From the NCBI GenBank assembly GCA_902618695.1, contig CACNCB010000003.1, positions 17,790 to 81,789 on the forward strand: a stretch of 64,000 bases of DNA. The letters run 5' to 3'. The position numbers and the translations under genes are program-made. Within the stretch, counting starts at the first letter, position 1; each line of letters starts with the position of its first letter. The notes beneath the pieces are model-generated. The model was given only the letters and a program-made list of their open reading frames with translations. It had not been told where the DNA came from and did no database searches. Positions 30,374 through 48,604 of the stretch are shown piece by piece. This DNA is from an uncultured Pelagibacteraceae bacterium. Its GTDB lineage: Bacteria > Pseudomonadota > Alphaproteobacteria > Pelagibacterales > Pelagibacteraceae.

Positions 30374-31117
30374 ATGAGATTAAAAAATTTTTCTAATTAC
30401 TCACCAAATTTTAATTCAATAAAAAGAAAAAAAACCCAAATAAAATTTTTAATTTTTCATTACACAGGAATGAAAAAAGAATCTAACGCTATAAAAAAAT
30501 TAACTAGCTTAGGATCTGATGTTAGTTGCCATTATTTTATAAAAAAAAATGGAGAAATTTTAGTATTGGTACCTGATTTGTATATTGCATGGCATGCTGG
30601 CAAGTCTCGATGGAAAAATTATAAATCTCTAAACATTAACTCTATCGGTGTAGAAATAAGTAATCCTGGACATGACTTTAATTACAAGAAATTTTCAAAA
30701 AAACAAATCCAATCAATCATAAAATTAAGTAAATATTTAATAAATAAATATAATATTAAATCTAAAAATATTTTAGGGCACTCAGATATTTCGCCAGAAA
30801 GAAAGAAGGACCCGGGAGAAAAATTCCCCTGGAAAGAACTTGCTAAAAAAGGTGTAGGTTTGTGGCACTCAATTTCTATACAAAAATGTAAAAAAAATAG
30901 AAAAATTCAATTAGACAAAATTTGTGCAAGATTATTTTATGATAATTTATCTAAAATTGGTTATACGATAAAAAAAACCTTCAATATAAAAAATAAAAAA
31001 TTTAATAATAATGTTGTGAAAGCTTTTCAAAGAAGATTTAGACAAGAATTAGTGAATAATAAGCTTGATAAAGAATGTTTAATTATCAGCAAGAATTTAC
31101 TTAAAAAATTTAATTAA
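30374..31117 (+). CDS. N-acetylmuramoyl-L-alanine amidase (Amidase_2 with PG-binding domain; AmpD/AmiD-like)
   Basis: IFHYTG, VSCHY, AWHAG.S.W, SIGVEI, GHSDI.P.RK.DPG, VKAFQRRFR. Confidence 0.9.
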   Translation: MRLKNFSNYSPNFNSIKRKKTQIKFLIFHYTGMKKESNAIKKLTSLGSDVSCHYFIKKNGEILVLVPDLYIAWHAGKSRWKNYKSLNINSIGVEISNPGHDFNYKKFSKKQIQSIIKLSKYLINKYNIKSKNILGHSDISPERKKDPGEKFPWKELAKKGVGLWHSISIQKCKKNRKIQLDKICARLFYDNLSKIGYTIKKTFNIKNKKFNNNVVKAFQRRFRQELVNNKLDKECLIISKNLLKKFN

Positions 31118-31677: not shown

Positions 31678-32136
31678 ATGTTTTTATCAACATACGAAAA
31701 CAAATTAGACAAAAAAGGGAGAGTATCTGTGCCTGCTAGTTTTAGGTCACATTTATCCAACTTAGGTTATAACGGTGTTATTTGTTATCCATCATTTAAT
31801 AACTCATCTATAGAAGCATGTTCTCAAGATAGAATTGAAAAAATTTCTTCAGCAATTGACTCCTTAAATCCCTTTGAGGAAAAAAGAGATTATTTTGCAA
31901 CAGCAATATTAGCAGAAAGTATAAATTTACAATTTGATAGTGAGGGTAGAATTTCACTTTCATCAAAATTATTAAAACATGCAAAAATAAAAAATAGCAT
32001 GTTGTTTGTTGGTCAAGGCCAAACATTTCAAATATGGGAACCAACAGCATTTGAAAAATTTAAGATAACAGCGAGGAAAAAAGCAAATATTAATCGTGGT
32101 AATCTTAAATGGGAGCTTCAACATAACAAACAATAG
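31678..32136 (+). CDS. mraZ: division/cell wall cluster transcriptional repressor
   Basis: MF..TYENKLDKKGRVSVPA, FDSEGRI, FVGQGQTFQIW. Confidence 0.96.
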   Translation: MFLSTYENKLDKKGRVSVPASFRSHLSNLGYNGVICYPSFNNSSIEACSQDRIEKISSAIDSLNPFEEKRDYFATAILAESINLQFDSEGRISLSSKLLKHAKIKNSMLFVGQGQTFQIWEPTAFEKFKITARKKANINRGNLKWELQHNKQ

Positions 32137-32146
32137 GGGATAAAAG

Positions 32147-33628
32147 ATGACAATTAATTTTAAAGCACCAGAGATAAAAGAACTACAGCCACGACTACTA
32201 GTTTTAGGAGTTGGAGGAGCTGGCGGAAATGCAATTAACGAAATGATAGAAAATAATCTACAAGGAGTAGAATTTATTGCAGTAAATACTGATGCTCAAG
32301 ATTTGAAGCTTAGTAAAGCAAAAACGAGAATTCAAATTGGATTAAATTTAACGAAAGGTTTAGGAGCAGGTGCAAAACTTGATATAGGACAAGCTGCAGC
32401 TGACGAATCTTTAAATGAAATTGTAAATACACTTCAAGGCGCAAATATGGTTTTTATTGCAGCTGGTATGGGTGGTGGAACGGGCACTGGTGCTGCTCAT
32501 GTCATCGCAAGAGCTGCTAAAGAATTAAATATCTTAACTGTAGGTGTTGTGACTCTTCCATTTTTATATGAAGGCCCCTCTAGAATGAGAAGAGCACAAC
32601 AAGGTTTGGAGGAGTTAAGAAAACATGTTGATACAATAATTGTTATACCTAATCAAAACCTATTTAAAATAGCTAACGAACAGACTACTTTTGAAGAATC
32701 CTTTAACCTTTCAAATAATGTTTTAATGCATGGCGTTCAAAGTATAACTGATTTGATGGTTAGACCTGGTTTAATCAACTTAGATTTTGCTGATGTTGAA
32801 ACTGTTATGGCGGCAATGGGCAAAGCTATGATGGGAACAGGCGAAGCTGAGGGAGAAGGTAGAGCTCTAAAAGCGGCAGAGATGGCTATTAGCAATCCAT
32901 TAATTGATGATTATACTTTAAAAGGAGCAAAAGGATTACTAGTAAATATTACTGGTGGCAAAGATCTTAAACTTTTTGAAGTTGATGAGGCTGTAAATAA
33001 AGTTAGGGCAGAAGTAGACCCAGAGGCAGAGTTAATTATTGGAGCGATTACTGACACAGAATTAGACGGCAAGATGAGAGTTTCAATTGTTGCAACCTCA
33101 TTAGATGGTCAACAACCTGAGTCAAAATCTGTAGTAAATATGGTTCATAGAATTCAAAACCGTAACCCAGGTTATTCTGATTTTTCAAACATCGGGTCAT
33201 CTCAATCTTTCAATTTTTCAAACACAACAACGTCAAATCCAATAACGCATGGCGCTAATGCTTTAAAACTTGAAAATGAAATAATCCAACAGGATCAAAC
33301 AGAAAGTTCTCATAATCAAATGTTTAATGAGGCTGTTCATCAAAACACCAGTATGGAAAGCGAGAGTATAGTTGAGGATAGTTCTGTTAATGAGATGGAA
33401 AAATCTTTTACTCAAGAGGCAATGGAAGCAACTCGTGAAGAATCTGGAGAGAATAATTTTGAACAAGAAACATCCAATGATCTGAGAGAATTTGGAGTTG
33501 ATTCTGATTCACCAGATTTATTCAGTTCAGAAATAGATACATCAAGTTCAGATGAACTTTTATCTTCTGAGCATGAGGAAGAAGATGATCTTGAGATACC
33601 AGCATTCTTAAGAAGACAAAAAAATTAA
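32147..33628 (+). CDS. ftsZ: cell division GTPase FtsZ
   Basis: [26 protein letters not shown]-terminal [12 protein letters not shown]. Confidence 0.98.
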
Positions 33629-33646
33629 TGGTCTTCCAAGAAATAA

Positions 33647-34657
33647 ATGGACGCCACCATAGTATCGAAAATGCAAAAGCATTATCCGGTACTGCTAAAA
33701 GAAATTATTAGCGTTATTTCCCCTCAACATGGTGGCACATTTATTGATTGTACATTTGGTCAAGGTGGTTATACCAAAAAAATATTAGATTTTAAAAATA
33801 CAAATGTAATTGCCCTAGACAGAGATATAGAGAGTGCAAAAATTGCAAATCAATTAAAAGAAAATTTTGAAGATAGATTTATTTTTAAAAATATTAAATT
33901 TAGTGAATTAAATAATTTAAAGCTCAAAAATGAAAACATAAGAGGAGTAATTTTTGATCTTGGTTATTCCTATGCTCAAATTAAAGATCCAAAAAAAGGA
34001 TTATCATTCGATAACAGTGGAAAATTAAATATGCAGCTCGGATTAAATAGTTACTCGGCAGAAGACGCAGTCAATAAACTTGATGAAAAAGAATTAGAAA
34101 AAATTTTCAAATTTTTTGGAGATGAAAAAGAAGCAAAATATATCGCACGTAATATCATAAATGAAAGATCTAAAAAAATAATTGATACTAAAGTTTTGGT
34201 AGAAATTATAGATAAATCTAAAAAAAGAAAAAATTTTAAAGTTCATAATGCAACCAAAGTTTTTCAAGCACTTAGAATCTTTGTAAATAAAGAAATAAGT
34301 GAATTAATTCATGGACTAATTAATGCTACTAAAGTTTTAAAAAAAGGAGGTGTTTTAGGCGTAGTTACTTTTCATTCTTTAGAGGATAAAATAGTAAAAT
34401 ATTTTTTTAAAAGTCTTTCTGAAAATGAAAGTATTTCACGGTATAGCCCTGCTGTAAAACAAGCAGATACATTATTTAATTTAATTAGAAAAAAACCAAT
34501 AATTCCTTCAGAAGAAGAGTTAAGTGAAAATCCACCATCTAGATCTGCTAAATTTAGATACGCAATAAAAAAAACTGATTTTTATAATTTTGATACCAAT
34601 ATAGAGGATCAATTCAAAAATTATATTGAAATTGAAAATTATGGAGACAAACTGTGA
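33647..34657 (+). CDS. rsmH: 16S rRNA m4C1402 methyltransferase
   Basis: [43 protein letters not shown]. Confidence 0.95.
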
Positions 34658-34959
34658 AAAAGTTTGCTTTAGCAGTAGTGATTTTTTTTTTAGTCCTATC
34701 AACTGCAATAATAAAAAATACGACTAAACAGATTGAAGATGAAATATTTACAACAAAAGAAAATATTAGAATTTTAAAGACTGATTTTGAAAATGTATCC
34801 TTGGAATATGATTATTTAAGTTCTTCAGAAAGGTTACTTGAATATCAGTCTCAGTATTTTGAGGATGAGTTAATTCAAAAAAATTTAAATGATATAAGGG
34901 TCTACAATATTTTAAATGATGTAAATAAAATCCACAATTTTAAAATTATTAAAGAGTAA
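34654..34959 (+). CDS. ftsL: cell division protein FtsL-like
   Basis: N-terminal TM then coiled coil, EYDYLSS.ERL; lies between rsmH and ftsI. Confidence 0.7.
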
Positions 34960-36650
34960 TGGTTGATAATAAATCGAAATTAACTATAGAGGATTATAAA
35001 AGTGATTTTACATTTAAGAAAAAAGAAAATGGATTAAATATTCAATTTAATCGTGTAGCTTTCATTTTCTTTGTTTTTTTTATTATATATTTAATTTACA
35101 CAATACACTTGGTTCACCTAGGTTCACGAAAGAGTAAATTAGAAAAAATCAATAATCTTCCTGGATCTAAAAATCAGCTTTATCGAGCAGACATCATAGA
35201 CATTAATGGAAATTATTTAGCTAAGACAGTTAAATCGATTGATATTGGTTTAAAAACTTCAGATATAATCAATGAAAAAAAATTACTTCTAAGTTTAAAT
35301 ATTATTTTTCCTGATAAAAATTTTGATGAAATTAAAAAAAAAATAAAAACTAAGAATTTTTTTTATTTAGAGAAGAAAATTTCAGAGAAAAATTATGAAA
35401 AAATAATGAAATTAGGAGACAAATCTTTGGTTCCAGAAGAAAGAGTTTTAAGAATATATCCACAAAAAAATCTTTTTAGTCATGTTTTAGGTCAGATAGA
35501 TGATGACAATAATGGTATTTCTGGATTGGAAAAATCTTTAAATGATGAACTTAGAAAATCAAAAGATTCAATTAAACTTACATTAGATAAAGATATTCAA
35601 TTTTTAATTAGAAAAGAATTAATTAAATATCAGGAAATTTTTAAAAGCAAAGGTAGTGCAGCTATTTTAATGGATGTTAATAATGGCAATATTTTATCAT
35701 TAGTTTCTTTGCCAGATTTCAATCCAAATGAAAGGCAAAATATTACAGATGTAAATTATATTAACAGGGTAACTAAAGGAACATATGAACTTGGGTCTGT
35801 ATTTAAAGCATTTACTTTTGCTAGCGCCTTAAATGAAAAGGTAATTGAACCAGAAACTGAATTTTTAGATTTACCCAAATCAATTAAATGTGACAAATAC
35901 AGAATAGGTGAGTACGACAATGAAATACCATCAGATTTAACTGCTGAGCAAATTTTAATTAGATCTGGAAATATAGGATCAGTAAAAATTGCTCAAAAAG
36001 TTGGCTCAGAAAAATTTAAATTATTTTTAGAAAAAGTTGGTGTGTTAAGTGATATTGATTTTGATATTGAAGAAGTTGCTCCTCAAAAAAATTATGATTT
36101 TGGAAAGTGCAGATTAGCTACAGCTTCTTTTGGACATGGAATAGCAACTACAATTCTTCAATTAGCAAAAGGTTACTCTGTTTTATCAAATGGTGGATAT
36201 GAAATTAAACCAACATTAATTTATAAAGAAAACAATTTAAATAAAAAAAATAAAAGAATATTAAACAGAGGTATTTCTGAACAAGTTGTTAGCGCTTTAA
36301 GAAAAATTGTAAATACTGAGGAAGGGACAGCTAAATTTGCAGATGTTCAAAATTATGAAATTGGTGGAAAAACAGGAACCGCTGATCAGCCTGAGGGAGG
36401 AGCATATTCTGAGGCAAAAATAAATACTTTTGCCTCTATTTTTCCTACATCAAATCCACAATTTGTTTTTGTTGTAATGCTAGATACTCCAAAAAAATCT
36501 AAAGATTATTATTATAAGTATAGACATCGAAAAGGAGGGTGGAAAGGTACACTTTATAATACTGCTGGCTGGACCTCAGTAGAGGTAGCTGGAAAAGTTA
36601 TAGACAAAATTGGGCCTATTTTAGCCACAAAATATATAGAGGTTAATTAG
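34959..36650 (+). CDS. ftsI: septal transpeptidase PBP3
   Basis: RADIIDING..LA, SVFK (SxxK), SGN (SxN), KTGTA. Confidence 0.92.
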   Translation: MVDNKSKLTIEDYKSDFTFKKKENGLNIQFNRVAFIFFVFFIIYLIYTIHLVHLGSRKSKLEKINNLPGSKNQLYRADIIDINGNYLAKTVKSIDIGLKTSDIINEKKLLLSLNIIFPDKNFDEIKKKIKTKNFFYLEKKISEKNYEKIMKLGDKSLVPEERVLRIYPQKNLFSHVLGQIDDDNNGISGLEKSLNDELRKSKDSIKLTLDKDIQFLIRKELIKYQEIFKSKGSAAILMDVNNGNILSLVSLPDFNPNERQNITDVNYINRVTKGTYELGSVFKAFTFASALNEKVIEPETEFLDLPKSIKCDKYRIGEYDNEIPSDLTAEQILIRSGNIGSVKIAQKVGSEKFKLFLEKVGVLSDIDFDIEEVAPQKNYDFGKCRLATASFGHGIATTILQLAKGYSVLSNGGYEIKPTLIYKENNLNKKNKRILNRGISEQVVSALRKIVNTEEGTAKFADVQNYEIGGKTGTADQPEGGAYSEAKINTFASIFPTSNPQFVFVVMLDTPKKSKDYYYKYRHRKGGWKGTLYNTAGWTSVEVAGKVIDKIGPILATKYIEVN

Positions 36651-36652
36651 AA

Positions 36653-39496
36653 ATGCTTCTAGGAAACTATTTTCATAACATAAATAAAAAATATAAAAAT
36701 TTTTCTTTTTCAGGAATTTCGTTTGACACGAAGAGTATTAAAAAAAATAATATTTTTTTTGCAATCAAAGGAAATAATATAGATGGAAATAAATTTATTC
36801 CAAAAGCAATTAAAAAAGGATCTAAAATTATTGTAACTGAAAACAAACCGAATCAATTTCAAAATGGAATTTTGTATATTAATACAAAGAATATAAGAAA
36901 ATTATTAGCTGAAACTGCTTTTAAAATTTACAATAAAAAACCAAAAAATTTAATCGCAGTTACAGGTACAAATGGAAAATCATCAGTTGCAGATTTTTAT
37001 TATCAAATATTAAAATTTAATCATAAAAAGGCTGCTTCAATTGGAACATTAGGTGTTAAATCAAAAAGCATTAATTTGAATTTATCTAATACCACAATAG
37101 ATCCAATCAAATTGGCTAAAATATTAAGCAAGTTAAAAAACCAAAAAATAGAAAATGTAATTATGGAAGCTTCAAGTCATGGTTTAAAGCAAAATAGACT
37201 AGATGGTTTAAAGTTTAATTCAGGTATATTTACCAATCTATCCCAGGATCATCTTGATTATCATAAAAATTTAAAAAATTATTTAAAAGCAAAACTTTAT
37301 TTATTTGAAAACCTAATCTCAAAAAGAGGAAATGTAATCACAGATCAATTAATACCTGAGTTTAAAAAGATAAAAAAAATTGCAATAAAAAAGAAATTAA
37401 AATTGCATACACTTAATGATGAGAAAAATAATCTAGAGCTTTTATCTCATAACTTTAAAGGAGAAGGTCAATTTCTTAGAATTAAATTAAATAGCTCAAT
37501 AAGGGATATAAATTTAAATTTAATTGGAAAAATACAATTAAAAAATGTTTTGATGGCAATAATTGCAGCAAAATATAGCGGTATAAGTTTAGATAAAATT
37601 TTAAATACAATTCCAAAATTGAAACCAGTTGAAGGAAGATTTGAAAAAGTAGGTAAAATTAAAAATCAATCAAAAGTAATTCTCGATTATGCTCATACGC
37701 CTGATGCTTTAAAAACGTGTCTTTTAAATCTTAGAGAACAATTCCCTGATAAAGCAATCACAGTGCTATTTGGTTGTGGCGGAAATAGAGATCAAAATAA
37801 AAGATCAAAAATGGGTAAAGTAGCTAGTGATTTTTCAGACAGTATCATTCTTACAAATGATAACCCTAGATTTGAAAATCCTCAAAAAATAAGAAGAGAT
37901 ATAAAAAAAGGTATAAAAAAAAAAAGAATTACTGAAATTGCTAATAGAGCAATAGCAATAAAACGATCTATCTATAATTTGAATTCAGGTGATATTTTGT
38001 TAGTCGCTGGAAAAGGCCATGAGAAAACGCAAGATATTGGAAATAAGAAAATTTTCTTTTCTGATAGAAAAGTAATTTTAAATGCTATTAAGAATAAAAA
38101 TAATAATTTATCAAATAATTTAAAATTAAATGTGATTAAAGAGGCAGTTAAAATTAAAAAATTATCTTCCTCTACATCTTTAAAAACAGCAAGAATTAAT
38201 TCTCAAGAAGTTACTAAAAAAGATATTTTTTTTGCTATTAGAGGAAAAAAAAATGATGGTAATAAATATGTTGCACAATCATTCAAGAGAAAAGCATCGT
38301 TAGCTGTAGTAAACAAAATCCAAAATAACTTAAATAAAAATCGCCAGATTAAAGTAAAAAATACTTTAAAGTTCCTAACAGATATTTCGAAAACTTTTAG
38401 AAAAAGTATTGATACAAATATTATAGCGATTACAGGTAGTTGTGGCAAAACCACACTTAAAGAATTGCTAGGCAATGTATTAAGTAAAATTTCAAAAACA
38501 AGTATTTCTCCAAAATCTTATAACAATAAATTTGGAGTTCCTTTGAGTCTTTTTAATTTAAAACAAAATGATGAATTTGGAATTTTAGAAGTTGGAATGG
38601 ATAAAAAAGGTGAAATTGATTATTTATCAAAAATAATAGAACCAGATGTTGGAGTAATAACAAATATAAATTATGCACATGCTAAAAATTTTAAAAATAT
38701 CAAACAGATTGCTTTGGCAAAATCTGAAATTATTAACAACATTAAACCGTATGGTTATATTGTATTGAATGCAGATGATAACTTTTTTCAATTGCATAAA
38801 AATATTGCCAAAGAAAATAAAATTAAAGTAGTTTCTTTTGGTATTAAAAATAACAAAGCAGACATTAAATTACTTAATACAAAGACTTTTGGAAAAAAAT
38901 TTAAAATTAATATTCAGTTAAATAATAAAAAAAAGTATTTCATATTATCAAACGATTTTCAAAACAATATATATAATACACTTTCTGCCTTATCAGTTAT
39001 TAGTATTTATAAAAATATATTTAAACTTAAAGAAAATATTTTTCTTAATTTTAAAATTCCAGGAGGAAGGGGAGACCATTCTATAATAAAAATTAATAAT
39101 AAAAAAATTAATTTAATTGATCAAAGTTATAATTCAAATCCTCTATCATTAAAATCATCAATAAAAAATTTTGATAAAATAAACTCAAAAAAATCAAATA
39201 AATATTTACTAATTGGTGACATGTTAGAGCTGGGTCGTCATTCTAAAAAACTTCATAAATCTATTGCTCCAATAATTAATCAAACCAAGATAGACAAGGT
39301 ATTTGTAAAAGGTAAAATGGCATCTATAATATTTGATAGTATCTCAAAAGCCAAAAAGGGCCGGATTTTATTAAACAAATCTCAAATTATTGAATTGATC
39401 AGAAAAGATTTAAATAATAATGATTATTTAATGATTAAAGCCTCACTTGCGACAGGATTCAACGACATAGTAAAAGACCTGAAAGGATTACATTAA
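36653..39496 (+). CDS. murEF: bifunctional MurE-MurF ligase fusion
   Basis: MurE half: GTNGKSS, EASSHGL, DYAHTPD, DNPR, AGKGHE. MurF half: GSCGKTT, SYNNKFGVP, D.SYNSNP, GDMLELG, IKAS. Confidence 0.92.
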   Translation: MLLGNYFHNINKKYKNFSFSGISFDTKSIKKNNIFFAIKGNNIDGNKFIPKAIKKGSKIIVTENKPNQFQNGILYINTKNIRKLLAETAFKIYNKKPKNLIAVTGTNGKSSVADFYYQILKFNHKKAASIGTLGVKSKSINLNLSNTTIDPIKLAKILSKLKNQKIENVIMEASSHGLKQNRLDGLKFNSGIFTNLSQDHLDYHKNLKNYLKAKLYLFENLISKRGNVITDQLIPEFKKIKKIAIKKKLKLHTLNDEKNNLELLSHNFKGEGQFLRIKLNSSIRDINLNLIGKIQLKNVLMAIIAAKYSGISLDKILNTIPKLKPVEGRFEKVGKIKNQSKVILDYAHTPDALKTCLLNLREQFPDKAITVLFGCGGNRDQNKRSKMGKVASDFSDSIILTNDNPRFENPQKIRRDIKKGIKKKRITEIANRAIAIKRSIYNLNSGDILLVAGKGHEKTQDIGNKKIFFSDRKVILNAIKNKNNNLSNNLKLNVIKEAVKIKKLSSSTSLKTARINSQEVTKKDIFFAIRGKKNDGNKYVAQSFKRKASLAVVNKIQNNLNKNRQIKVKNTLKFLTDISKTFRKSIDTNIIAITGSCGKTTLKELLGNVLSKISKTSISPKSYNNKFGVPLSLFNLKQNDEFGILEVGMDKKGEIDYLSKIIEPDVGVITNINYAHAKNFKNIKQIALAKSEIINNIKPYGYIVLNADDNFFQLHKNIAKENKIKVVSFGIKNNKADIKLLNTKTFGKKFKINIQLNNKKKYFILSNDFQNNIYNTLSALSVISIYKNIFKLKENIFLNFKIPGGRGDHSIIKINNKKINLIDQSYNSNPLSLKSSIKNFDKINSKKSNKYLLIGDMLELGRHSKKLHKSIAPIINQTKIDKVFVKGKMASIIFDSISKAKKGRILLNKSQIIELIRKDLNNNDYLMIKASLATGFNDIVKDLKGLH

Positions 39497-46346: not shown

Positions 46347-47258
46347 TTGAAAAAAATACTAATAATATCAGGGGGGGTATCGAAAGAGAGACTAATTAGT
46401 CTTGATACAGGGCAACAGGTTGCTAATGAGCTAAAAAAAAATGGTTATAGAGTTAAAATCATTGAACCGGATAATAATTTAGAAAAAAATATTAAATTTT
46501 TTAGACCAAATGTAATTTTTAATGCCCTGCATGGCCAATTCGGTGAAGATGGTTATATTCAAACTATTCTAGAGAGGTTTAAAATTCCTTATACTCATTC
46601 AGGTGTAATTGCATCGTCTATTGCAATGGATAAAGAAATTTCAAAAAAAATATTCATTAAAAATAAAATAAATACACCAAAATTTTTTACACATTCTTAC
46701 GATGTTAAAAATGAAGATTTAATAAAAAAAATAAAAAAAGAATTAAAATTTCCAGTAGTTGTAAAGCCTTTAAATGAAGGTTCTAGTGTTAACGTATATA
46801 TTTGTAATGAAAAAAATATAATTAAAATTATTAATTCAATCAAAAAATATAAAAAAGTTATGATTGAAGAATTTATTGGTGGAAGGGAAATACAAGTTGC
46901 AATAATGGGAAATAAAAAACTAGGAGCAATAGAACTAAAACCAAAGAGAAAATTTTATGATTATAAAGCAAAATATAATTCTAGCGCGAAAACTGAACAT
47001 ATAATTCCAGTTGATTTACCCAAAGCTAAAATGGATATGGTCATGAATATGGCGTATAAAGCTCATAAATTGATTGGTTGTCGGGGCGTCACAAGATCTG
47101 ATTTTAAATTTTTTAATGATAAATTTTATCTTTTAGAAATAAATACTCAACCAGGTATGACTAAACTTTCACTTGTACCTGAAATTGCAGAATATAGGAG
47201 TATTAGTTTTTTAGAGTTAATCGAGTGGATAATGCAAGATGCATCAAAGAAAAAGTAG
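46347..47258 (+). CDS. ddl: D-alanine--D-alanine ligase
   Basis: LHGQFGEDG, EGSS, FYDYKAKY, LEINTQPG. Confidence 0.96.
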   Translation: MKKILIISGGVSKERLISLDTGQQVANELKKNGYRVKIIEPDNNLEKNIKFFRPNVIFNALHGQFGEDGYIQTILERFKIPYTHSGVIASSIAMDKEISKKIFIKNKINTPKFFTHSYDVKNEDLIKKIKKELKFPVVVKPLNEGSSVNVYICNEKNIIKIINSIKKYKKVMIEEFIGGREIQVAIMGNKKLGAIELKPKRKFYDYKAKYNSSAKTEHIIPVDLPKAKMDMVMNMAYKAHKLIGCRGVTRSDFKFFNDKFYLLEINTQPGMTKLSLVPEIAEYRSISFLELIEWIMQDASKKK

Positions 47259-47910
47259 GAAGTTATTAATTTATTTTTTTTTGTTAATAATAATAAGTTC
47301 AACTAATAACATTTCTTTAAAAAATTTAGAATTTAAAAAAGTTAAAGATATTGAAGTTTCAGGACTAGGTGAAATGGAAAATAAACTCATAATTGATAAA
47401 ATAAAAAATCTTAACTTAAGTAATATTTTTTTTATTAATAAATCAGAGATCAATAATTTAATAAGTTCAAATCCACTAATTGAAAAATATCAAATTTTTA
47501 AAAGTTATCCATCAGCTATAAAAATTATGATTAAAAAAACAAAATTTTTAGCTAAAATAAATCACAATAATGAAATATTTGTAATTGGTTCAAATGGCAA
47601 ATTAATACCCAATAATTTCCAAACATCTGATTTGCCATATATTTTCGGCAAACCAGAAACTCAAGAGTTTTTGAAATTTAAACAAGTAATAGACCAATCT
47701 AAATTTTCATTTGATGAAATTGAGAGTTTGTATTTTTTTCCATCTAAAAGATGGGACATTAAACTAAAAAATAACATTTTATTAAAATTATCTAATACTT
47801 CAACCATGGACTCTTTAAATTATGCTTATGAATTTTTAGAGGATAACAATGTTAGAAAATTTACCACAATTGATATTAGAATAAACAATCAAATTATATT
47901 AAATGAATGA
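47239..47910 (+). CDS. ftsQ: cell division protein FtsQ/DivIB (divergent, short)
   Basis: N-terminal TM, POTRA-like IEVSG...YPSAIKI, RWDI, C-terminal IDIR; follows ddl. Confidence 0.8.
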   Translation: MHQRKSRKLLIYFFLLIIISSTNNISLKNLEFKKVKDIEVSGLGEMENKLIIDKIKNLNLSNIFFINKSEINNLISSNPLIEKYQIFKSYPSAIKIMIKKTKFLAKINHNNEIFVIGSNGKLIPNNFQTSDLPYIFGKPETQEFLKFKQVIDQSKFSFDEIESLYFFPSKRWDIKLKNNILLKLSNTSTMDSLNYAYEFLEDNNVRKFTTIDIRINNQIILNE

Positions 47911-48604
47911 AATTTCTGAGTTTGAAACTTATTTAAGCATTTCTCAAAGTAAATTTGGAATTTATTTGTATGATACAAAAAATAGAAATAACTTTTATGA
48001 TAAAGAGGTAACTTTTGAAAAAACAAATTTTATTAATTACTCTCATCTAAAGCAATTTCTTGATGATAATGTTTTTAGAATAGAAAAATTAGCAGGAAAA
48101 TTTATTGAGAATATTTATATACTTATTGATGATGAAAATATTTTAAATACCCAAATAGGGATTAAACAAAAAAATTATCAACCTTCGAAAAGCAAAGTTT
48201 ATCTTCAAAGTTCTATAACTAACGCAAAAGATTTGTTTAAAGAAAATTATCCTGATGAAAAAATTATGCATATCATAATAAATAAATATTTAATTGATGG
48301 TAAAAACTATTTTTATCTAAAAGATAATCTACAGTACGAGCAGTTAAATTTAGTCATTCAATTCAAATCTATATCAAATGAAATTACATATAATTTAAAT
48401 AAAATATTACAAAATTATCAAATAAATATTATTAAGTTTTTAGATGGAAATTATGTTAAAAATTTTTTTAAAGATAAAGACATTAAAGTATCAAAAATGG
48501 CTTTTGAGATTTTAAATGGTTGTAATGTGAATGAAGTCTTGGTTCTACAAAAAAATACAAAAAAATTAGGTTTTTTTGAAAAATTTTTTCAACTATTTAG
48601 TTAG
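47903..48604 (+). CDS. truncated, divergent FtsA-like protein
   Basis: Occupies the ftsA position; IEKLAGKFIENIYI and KIMHIIINKYLIDG resemble FtsA subdomains 1A/1C; C-terminal amphipathic GFFEKFFQLFS. Confidence 0.6.
   Translation: MNEISEFETYLSISQSKFGIYLYDTKNRNNFYDKEVTFEKTNFINYSHLKQFLDDNVFRIEKLAGKFIENIYILIDDENILNTQIGIKQKNYQPSKSKVYLQSSITNAKDLFKENYPDEKIMHIIINKYLIDGKNYFYLKDNLQYEQLNLVIQFKSISNEITYNLNKILQNYQINIIKFLDGNYVKNFFKDKDIKVSKMAFEILNGCNVNEVLVLQKNTKKLGFFEKFFQLFS

Follow-up and report, generated by a model that had tools for sequence, protein, structure and literature searches.

What does the division machinery retain of FtsA when the ftsA position encodes only half of the protein? This question is raised by a stretch of 64,000 nucleotides (the window) from an uncultured Pelagibacteraceae bacterium, contig CACNCB010000003.1 of assembly GCA_902618695.1, in which an open reading frame of 233 amino acids (aa) occupies the ftsA slot. 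FtsA is generally viewed as a conserved, actin-like protein that tethers the Z-ring, and its ATP-dependent polymerisation and the contact of its subdomain 2B with FtsZ are central to current models of how the divisome is assembled and activated. The site for the FtsZ peptide on FtsA is subdomain 2B, as seen in the Thermotoga maritima complex (PDB 4A2A). The initial annotation of the window had described the frame as a half-FtsA without the phosphate-1 and phosphate-2 motifs and without subdomains 2A and 2B. We found that the 233-aa protein is a derived FtsA orthologue cut to domain 1, and that it arose when a single in-frame deletion removed all of domain 2 (2A and 2B, about 135 aa) from the ftsA of an ancestor within the genus Pelagibacter. 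As to its function, we infer with a probability of about 0.6 that it is a nucleotide-free membrane adaptor working through 1A-1C, and that FtsZ is tethered by another anchor.

Descent from FtsA was sought in the protein alone and in its relatives. A Pfam search of the 233-aa protein gave no match at E-values up to 10, and phmmer against the PDB sequences gave chance matches only (T-cell receptor, autolysin). The FtsA model TIGR01174 scored 12.6 bits (E 0.053; cut-off 175.85), with residues 44-176 lying collinearly on model positions 44-174, and the curated thresholds of the FtsA family (TIGR01174 / PF14450 + PF02491) were not reached. In databases, the short FtsA carries no Pfam domain, and the single source name seen was "hypothetical protein"; thus, surveys may score such genomes as lacking FtsA.

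Genes in the same slot were then compared across 151 genomes of the same order. Within the same genus the slot holds genes of two sizes, about 222-245 aa and 368-394 aa, and in the neighbouring genus a gene of 400 aa. The long genes are positional orthologues of the short one in the order ddl-ftsQ-ftsA-lpxC-bamD. BLASTP placed residues 6-190 of the short FtsA on residues 5-187 of the long forms (368-391 aa) at an E-value of about 1e-10, and a second match placed residues 166-232 on their last 65 residues (304-368). The long forms exceed the PF14450 threshold exactly within the segment that the short FtsA is without. Identity between the short and the long proteins is 24-28% in the N-terminal half. 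A mixed profile of short and long forms matched solved FtsA structures at E 9e-9, and the top three matches of a profile made from short forms only were still FtsA entries (E 0.015-0.12). Searches with the single short sequence gave nothing clear; its homology to FtsA is plain only by way of the long forms of sister species.

We aligned 12 short and nine long forms (alignment A1) to locate the missing part. One block of about 135 residues was absent from every short form. It contains the phosphate-2 strand D-I-G-x-x-K-T, the motif G-G-x-H-I-T-x-D-I, the helices of 2B and the adenosine motif G-x-G-S. The long forms of sister species keep domain 2 with these motifs and the D-x-G of phosphate 1, and their C-terminal helix, linker and membrane helix are matched in the short form. 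The alignment and counts by position thus agreed with the initial annotation on the absence of both phosphate motifs and of 2A and 2B. The loss of domain 2 stands, whereas the size given for the shortening, about 190 aa, does not, since the difference from the lineage's own FtsA of about 369 aa is about 135 aa. The exact deletion column varied with the MAFFT settings and fell after residue ~195 or after residue ~214. The junction at ~195 is preferred, because BLAST and a 244-aa short form from one species (L047), whose C-terminal helix and linker are almost long-form-like, put residues 196-214 on the C-terminal helix of the long forms.

An AlphaFold2 model was built on 42 short forms, with a mean predicted local distance difference test score of 86.9 and a predicted template modelling (TM) score of 0.79. 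It shows a single RNase-H-like lobe: three strands, a helix and a strand of 1A, then strand-helix-strand-strand of 1C, then helix, strand and helix of the remainder of 1A. The C-terminal part consists of a helix at residues 196-207, a linker modelled with lower confidence and a last helix at residues 224-232. In a Foldseek search against the PDB, the best 19 matches were all FtsA (E 6.5e-11 to 5.7e-8, ~190 columns, query TM ~0.55-0.64), followed by the cytoplasmic domains of GspL/EpsL and by PilM. VIA-align gave Z scores of 12-15 against FtsA, with ~200 positions aligned over a span from chain residue ~2-8 to ~371-392. This chain-long span with ~200 aligned positions indicates that the model represents domain 1 together with the last helix of the fold, which comes back to 1A. 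The model is FtsA-like, and together with the intact frame and the BLASTP and profile matches it upholds the identification of a half-FtsA in the ftsA slot. The proposed anatomy of 1A, 1C and a membrane helix was likewise supported by alignment, tree and structure; the direct jump from 1C to the tail was not, as residues 159-207 of 1A are retained. The parts of the protein and related features are listed in Table 1.

Table 1 Features of the short ftsA gene, of ftsQ and of ftsZ in the window.
Feature	Position	Strand	Basis and remarks
Short ftsA (FtsA of domain 1 only)	47903..48604	+	Intact open reading frame, 233 aa, between ftsQ and lpxC
Residues 1-80, N-terminal part of subdomain 1A	47903..48142	+	Three strands, helix 46-64 and strand 70-76 in the model; Ser12/Ser14 replace the long-form Asp/Gly
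Residues 81-158, subdomain 1C (SHS2-type insert)	48143..48376	+	Collinear with 1C of TIGR01174 and of E. coli/Vibrio FtsA; strand-helix-strand-strand in the model
Residues 159-195, return to 1A (helix, fifth strand, helix)	48377..48487	+	Alignment A1 and model; ends where the phosphate-2 strand of long-form 2A starts
Approximate deletion junction	48487..48488	+	Alignment A1, split BLAST matches (residues 6-187 on long-form 5-182, 166-232 on 304-368), VIA alignment
Residues 196-207, final actin-fold helix packing on 1A	48488..48523	+	Matches the long-form C-terminal I-C-Q-x-G-F helix; helix in the model
Residues 208-222, linker with conserved N-x-N-E-V motif and K217	48524..48568	+	Conservation table, alignment A2
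Residues 223-233, predicted amphipathic membrane-targeting helix G-F-F-E-K-F-F-Q-L-F-S	48569..48601	+	Near-invariant in both forms; helix 224-232 in the model
ftsQ	47239..47910	+	POTRA_1 and FtsQ_DivIB_C domains
ftsZ	32147..33628	+	TIGR00065 at 390 bits; between mraZ and rsmH, not 3' of ftsA
FtsZ C-terminal peptide (14 residues)	33584..33625	+	Open reading frame, tail alignment
Second conserved FtsZ linker motif L..F......P.LF	33482..33523	+	Five positions without variation across 15 Pelagibacter FtsZ tails; lies ~24 residues upstream of the C-terminal peptide

Canonical FtsA was represented by the proteins of E. coli, Vibrio maritimus, T. maritima and S. aureus (PDB 7Q6D, 7Q6F/7Q6I, 1E4F/4A2A, 3WQT). 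The short FtsA shares with them the slot after ftsQ, the 1A and 1C architecture, the final helix, the C-terminal amphipathic helix and the E61/K62 and H123 positions. Unlike the short FtsA, they have domain 2 (2A, 2B), the nucleotide motifs, the IIA-IIB contact and the 2B pocket. Residues conserved in both short and long forms include E61 and K62 of helix 1, H123 of 1C, Y184, G206, K217 and the G-F-F-E-x-F-F-x-x-F tail. The tail, as G-F-F-E-K-F-F-x-L-F, is conserved in more than 90% of the sequences and has a hydrophobic moment of 0.54; from this it is predicted to be a membrane-targeting helix retained in the short FtsA. Conserved only in the short forms are F52, N56 and I60 on one face of helix 1, F67 just after it, K88, and N208, N210 and E211. 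Judged by this pattern of conservation, these residues may form a surface that has become more important since the deletion.

The short form was found in many relatives of the window's genome. A large protein database held 1184 short-form clusters at 90% identity, the best 120 of which were all 232-233 aa, and an exhaustive search of the 50% representatives gave 1177 matches, including dozens of full-length clusters of 229-237 aa. The lengths of 165 short sequences ranged from 220 to 244 aa (mode 234), with identity down to 22%. All of the 80 loci recovered from reference genomes belonged to Pelagibacteraceae or Candidatus Pelagibacter. Among the sources are single-cell genomes as well as the cultured isolates HIMB1456, HIMB1485, HIMB1611, HIMB1695, nBUS_33, nBUS_36 and nBUS_49. 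Among 77 sampled species of the genus, ~47 had an intact short form, 20 had a long form, ~6 had contig-end fragments or an interrupted frame, and five had no match to the query. Of the Pelagibacter species sampled, about two thirds thus have the short form as their FtsA. In our search of the literature on SAR11/Pelagibacter FtsA and on FtsA that is truncated or reduced in length, no account of this form was found. Two marine metatranscriptome runs contained only small shares of the sequence words, and their contigs reached parts of lpxC only and none of ftsA.

In a tree calculated on the shared columns, the short forms made up one clade (SH-like approximate likelihood ratio test 90) that was sister to the 369-aa forms (96), and the 387-391-aa and 400-aa forms fell outside this group. 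The tree of LpxC, encoded by the neighbouring gene, requires no more than one change. A single deletion is the simplest history, as the short forms are one clade and the LpxC tree is compatible with it. Some close relatives do carry a full-length ftsA in the same slot, but the short forms make up an old and diverse clade of their own and are not the result of a recent break.

We estimated the ratio of nonsynonymous to synonymous substitution (dN/dS) in close pairs. It was 0.18-0.28 for short ftsA, 0.16-0.26 for long ftsA, 0.19-0.29 for ftsQ and 0.05-0.10 for lpxC. The short ftsA is under purifying selection, as relaxed as that on the full-length Pelagibacter ftsA and no more, so that the copy is not evolving neutrally. 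These values bear on whether the gene is a decaying, functionless remnant kept by its position in the division and cell wall (dcw) operon. It evolves faster than its neighbours (dN/dS of 0.2 against 0.05-0.1 for lpxC), and its frame is shifted at a poly-A run in one complete genome, as would be expected of decay. Its dN/dS nevertheless stays well under 1 and matches that of full-length FtsA, and its length is kept throughout the 165 sequences even where identity drops to 22%. Hardly any variation is seen in the membrane helix and at several core positions, and the clade is both old and diverse; the single frameshift is located in a homopolymer and may reflect an error in sequencing. We therefore consider a remnant very improbable. 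The frameshifted copy is that of locus L164 (G119:C1:958300-961300), where the run falls in Lys-Lys-Lys codons; it is either a homopolymer sequencing error or real.

ftsQ and short ftsA (47239-48604; loci L004-L052) diverge together, far faster than their neighbours. The identity to the relative G091 was 56% for ftsQ and 55% for short ftsA, against 79% for ddl and 90% for an FzlC-like protein described below. In some close pairs, the dS of ftsQ-ftsA was below that of lpxC, suggesting recombination of an ftsQ-ftsA cassette. The 'metaparalog' description (bioRxiv 10.64898/2026.10.07.757358) fits this joint divergence. "FtsQ-FtsA" is among the fast-diverging Pelagibacterales gene pairs in one preprint, in which the length of FtsA is unmentioned.

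A second FtsA, or the missing half, was searched for in the window's genome (1.23 Mb, 89.5% complete) and in five complete short-form genomes. FtsA models detected no other FtsA in the former, and no full-length ftsA was present in the five relatives, which agrees with the initial proposal. Weak matches of the FtsA models in a 648-aa open reading frame were taken to be another actin-fold protein, probably DnaK; an MreB query was also weak there. PF14450 matched one protein in each of the five complete genomes, which appeared FtsA-like at first; each was MreB, with mreC and mreD behind its gene. In the window's assembly, queries with PF14450 and with the MreB of a relative did not detect MreB. 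As the five complete relatives have mreBCD, the MreB gene of the window's genome is probably in the unassembled part.

These searches also bear on a split gene, in which domain 2 would be encoded elsewhere and assemble with the short half. Nothing was seen that speaks for it. PF14450, which covers domain 2, gave only MreB in the five complete genomes and nothing in the window's genome. At the locus itself, the gap from short ftsA to lpxC is 66 bp only, which leaves no space for a frameshifted remainder of ftsA. The split-gene explanation is thus already largely refuted and hardly credible.

We examined whether the residues that would line the remaining half of the nucleotide cleft are kept. 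At position 12 of phosphate 1, 20 of the 21 long forms have Asp and the remaining one Glu, whereas D/E was present in 5 of the 165 short forms, which mostly have Tyr, Ile, Phe, Ser or Leu. The phosphate-1 Gly at position 14 is kept in 20/21 long forms versus 20/165 short forms. The phosphate-2 and adenosine motifs lie inside the deleted block, and hence are absent. With half of the cleft gone and the phosphate-1 Asp and Gly decayed, it follows from the structure, here a predicted one, that the short FtsA should be unable to bind ATP as FtsA does. The ATP independence proposed initially gains support from this decay.

The next-best structural matches (Z ~10-11), the cytoplasmic domain of GspL/EpsL in type II secretion (PDB 1W97, 1YF5, 4PHT) and PilM (2YCH, 5EOU), are FtsA-like actin-fold relatives with a 1C-type insert and act as membrane-associated adaptors. 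GspL does not use ATP, as may be the case for the short FtsA, but it keeps the second RNase-H-like lobe, has a transmembrane anchor and belongs to a secretion system. PilM belongs to the pilus system, is full length and binds ATP; its bitopic partner PilN binds by its tail in the IA-IC cleft, the same cleft in which the FtsN tail binds FtsA (PMC7613929). In FtsA filaments, the lateral contacts are IC-IC and the longitudinal contacts IIA-IIB (PMC7613929). Having lost domain 2, the short FtsA is without the IIA-IIB longitudinal surfaces and without the 2B pocket for the FtsZ peptide.

From this anatomy, we propose that the short FtsA would sit on the membrane by its amphipathic helix as a nucleotide-free adaptor. 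The 1A-1C module would then be available to the cytoplasmic tails of bitopic proteins of the divisome, so that the short FtsA would contact or regulate late divisome proteins. It would neither polymerise head to tail, nor use ATP, nor bind FtsZ by the known mode; the lateral 1C-1C surface would be retained. The isolated 1C subdomain of E. coli FtsA can reportedly recruit late division proteins, as in the polar-recruitment experiments of Corbin and colleagues (2004). That fragment is without the FtsZ-binding lobe and yet is said to recruit, the activity proposed here for the short FtsA; it was engineered and studied beside wild-type FtsA, whereas the short FtsA is the only FtsA of the cell. The FtsI tail of about 30 residues may be one partner among several. 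This N-terminal cytoplasmic tail precedes the membrane helix (34959-35060) and shows the pattern E-D/E-Y..(x)F.(F/Y)KK....L.I.FNR in both long-form and short-form species.

A dimer could also be the working unit, either through 1C-1C or through the exposed 1A face, two copies of which would mimic the two-lobed actin fold. The lobes of the actin fold are generally known to be related RNase-H-like halves, and removal of domain 2 uncovers the former interdomain surface. Moreover, twofold-symmetric 1C-1C contacts occur in FtsA double filaments (PMC7613929). A rebuilt ATP site is unlikely because the phosphate-1 residues are lost, and a dimer would be compatible with the adaptor function and not exclusive of it. 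We judge a dimer improbable as an explanation of its own.

If the short FtsA does not hold FtsZ, what does? As the initial annotation had stated, FtsZ keeps its C-terminal peptide, which is present at the FtsZ end. Its core, E-I-P-A-F-L-R-R-Q, does not differ among 16 genomes with short or long FtsA, and the flanks show single substitutions only. The linker around the second FtsZ motif (Table 1) is otherwise variable. It is conceivable that the short FtsA still tethers FtsZ by a new 1A/1C interface, to the C-terminal peptide or to the second linker motif. Consistent with this, the peptide is invariant in short-form genomes and the linker motif is conserved, the membrane helix is retained, and the helix-1 face with F52, N56, I60 and F67 is conserved in the short forms only. 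However, both the peptide and the linker motif are just as well conserved where FtsA is long and are older than the deletion, so that their conservation needs no new partner. In addition, the sole known FtsZ site on FtsA, 2B, is deleted, and another known type of peptide-binding anchor is encoded. A complex prediction of short FtsA residues 1-214 (A2) with the last 70 FtsZ residues (A3) scored 0.03 against a mark of 0.32, which speaks neither for nor against an interaction. We regard a new FtsZ interface as unlikely.

SepF, ZipA and SPOR-domain proteins were searched for in the window's genome (89.5% complete) and not found, and no ABC ATPase there reached the FtsE cut-off. ZapA is present. 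A SAR11-wide absence of the same divisome genes has been reported, with the FtsA length unmentioned (bioRxiv 10.1101/2025.06.25.661606).

A candidate anchor is encoded on another contig (G000:C1:204340-205962; L162), between the genes for ribulose-phosphate 3-epimerase and an AICARFT/IMPCHase bienzyme (purH-type). It is a 541-aa heparinase II/III-family protein with a C-terminal PF07940 domain (149.7 bits), without a signal peptide by eye and predicted to be cytoplasmic. We take the FzlC protein of Caulobacter crescentus to be a member of the same family, and in a control search PF07940 exceeded its cut-off in Caulobacter, whereas E. coli and B. subtilis gave no match above it. By this family membership, the 541-aa protein is likened to FzlC and may be its Pelagibacter equivalent, a candidate alternative anchor of FtsZ. 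An FzlC-like PF07940 protein is present in 89 of the 90 family genomes, with either FtsA form. In G130, a genome with long-form FtsA, the FzlC-like gene is split in two by stops, which may be genuine or an artefact of assembly.

In Caulobacter, FzlC binds both the membrane and the C-terminal peptide of FtsZ, and recruits FtsZ to membranes ahead of FtsA (10.1101/171280). In Agrobacterium, an FzlC homologue is present, FtsA is late, and Z-rings form without FtsA (10.1101/412759). Late FtsA and early anchoring by FzlC in Alphaproteobacteria suggest that tethering by FtsA had become redundant by the time of the loss of domain 2. FtsZ in short-form cells would thus be tethered by another anchor, most probably the family-wide FzlC-like heparinase II/III protein. 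We hold the stronger form of this proposal, in which FtsA is pared to 1A-1C and a membrane helix in most Pelagibacter and the Z-ring is anchored wholly by an FzlC-type protein, only tentatively, at slightly less than an even chance.

Several points weigh against the proposal of a membrane adaptor with a separate FtsZ anchor. FtsN (SPOR) was not found in the window's genome, so that the usual partner of 1C seems absent; that genome is only 89.5% complete. The short FtsA is fast-evolving, keeping 55% identity where the FzlC-like protein keeps 90%, and this could signal a reduced or changing role. The short-only residues F52, N56, I60 and F67 hint, by their conservation, at a new interface, which might equally well serve FtsZ. 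Finally, the orthology of the PF07940 protein to Caulobacter FzlC and its binding to FtsZ are at the level of candidates.

Pelagibacter cells are among the most numerous organisms on Earth. In a very abundant lineage that has FtsZ with its docking peptide, FtsA thus consists of domain 1 only; this shows which activities of FtsA are dispensable in nature, and points to the 1A-1C module as the FtsA core. If the adaptor proposal is true, the lineage is a natural experiment that defines the minimal indispensable part of FtsA as a tail-binding and regulatory module. Species with the 369-aa and the 233-aa protein, including the cultured HIMB and nBUS isolates, provide matched natural pairs for biochemistry. 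The short form also bears on how SAR11 divides with so few regulators, a question raised in a recent preprint whose list of missing divisome genes makes no mention of it (bioRxiv 10.1101/2025.06.25.661606).

The genes of the window are in the order mraZ, ftsZ, rsmH, ftsL, ftsI, fused murE-murF, mraY, murD, ftsW, murG, murC, murB, ddl, ftsQ, short ftsA, lpxC, bamD and ligA. The ATG of short ftsA lies within the last codons of ftsQ, with an overlap of 8 nt. ftsZ stands at the head of the dcw cluster (region 31678-34657), and its place between mraZ and rsmH was the same in all 15 relatives examined. As the mraZ-ftsZ-rsmH order is common to long-form and short-form species and to the neighbouring genus, the relocation of ftsZ is older than the FtsA deletion. 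murE and murF are fused into one open reading frame of 947 aa (36653-39496) with two Mur ligase middle and two C-terminal domains. An Amidase_2 (N-acetylmuramoyl-L-alanine amidase) gene is located at 30374-31117, ~560 bp upstream of the mraZ start, and its position is kept in relatives.

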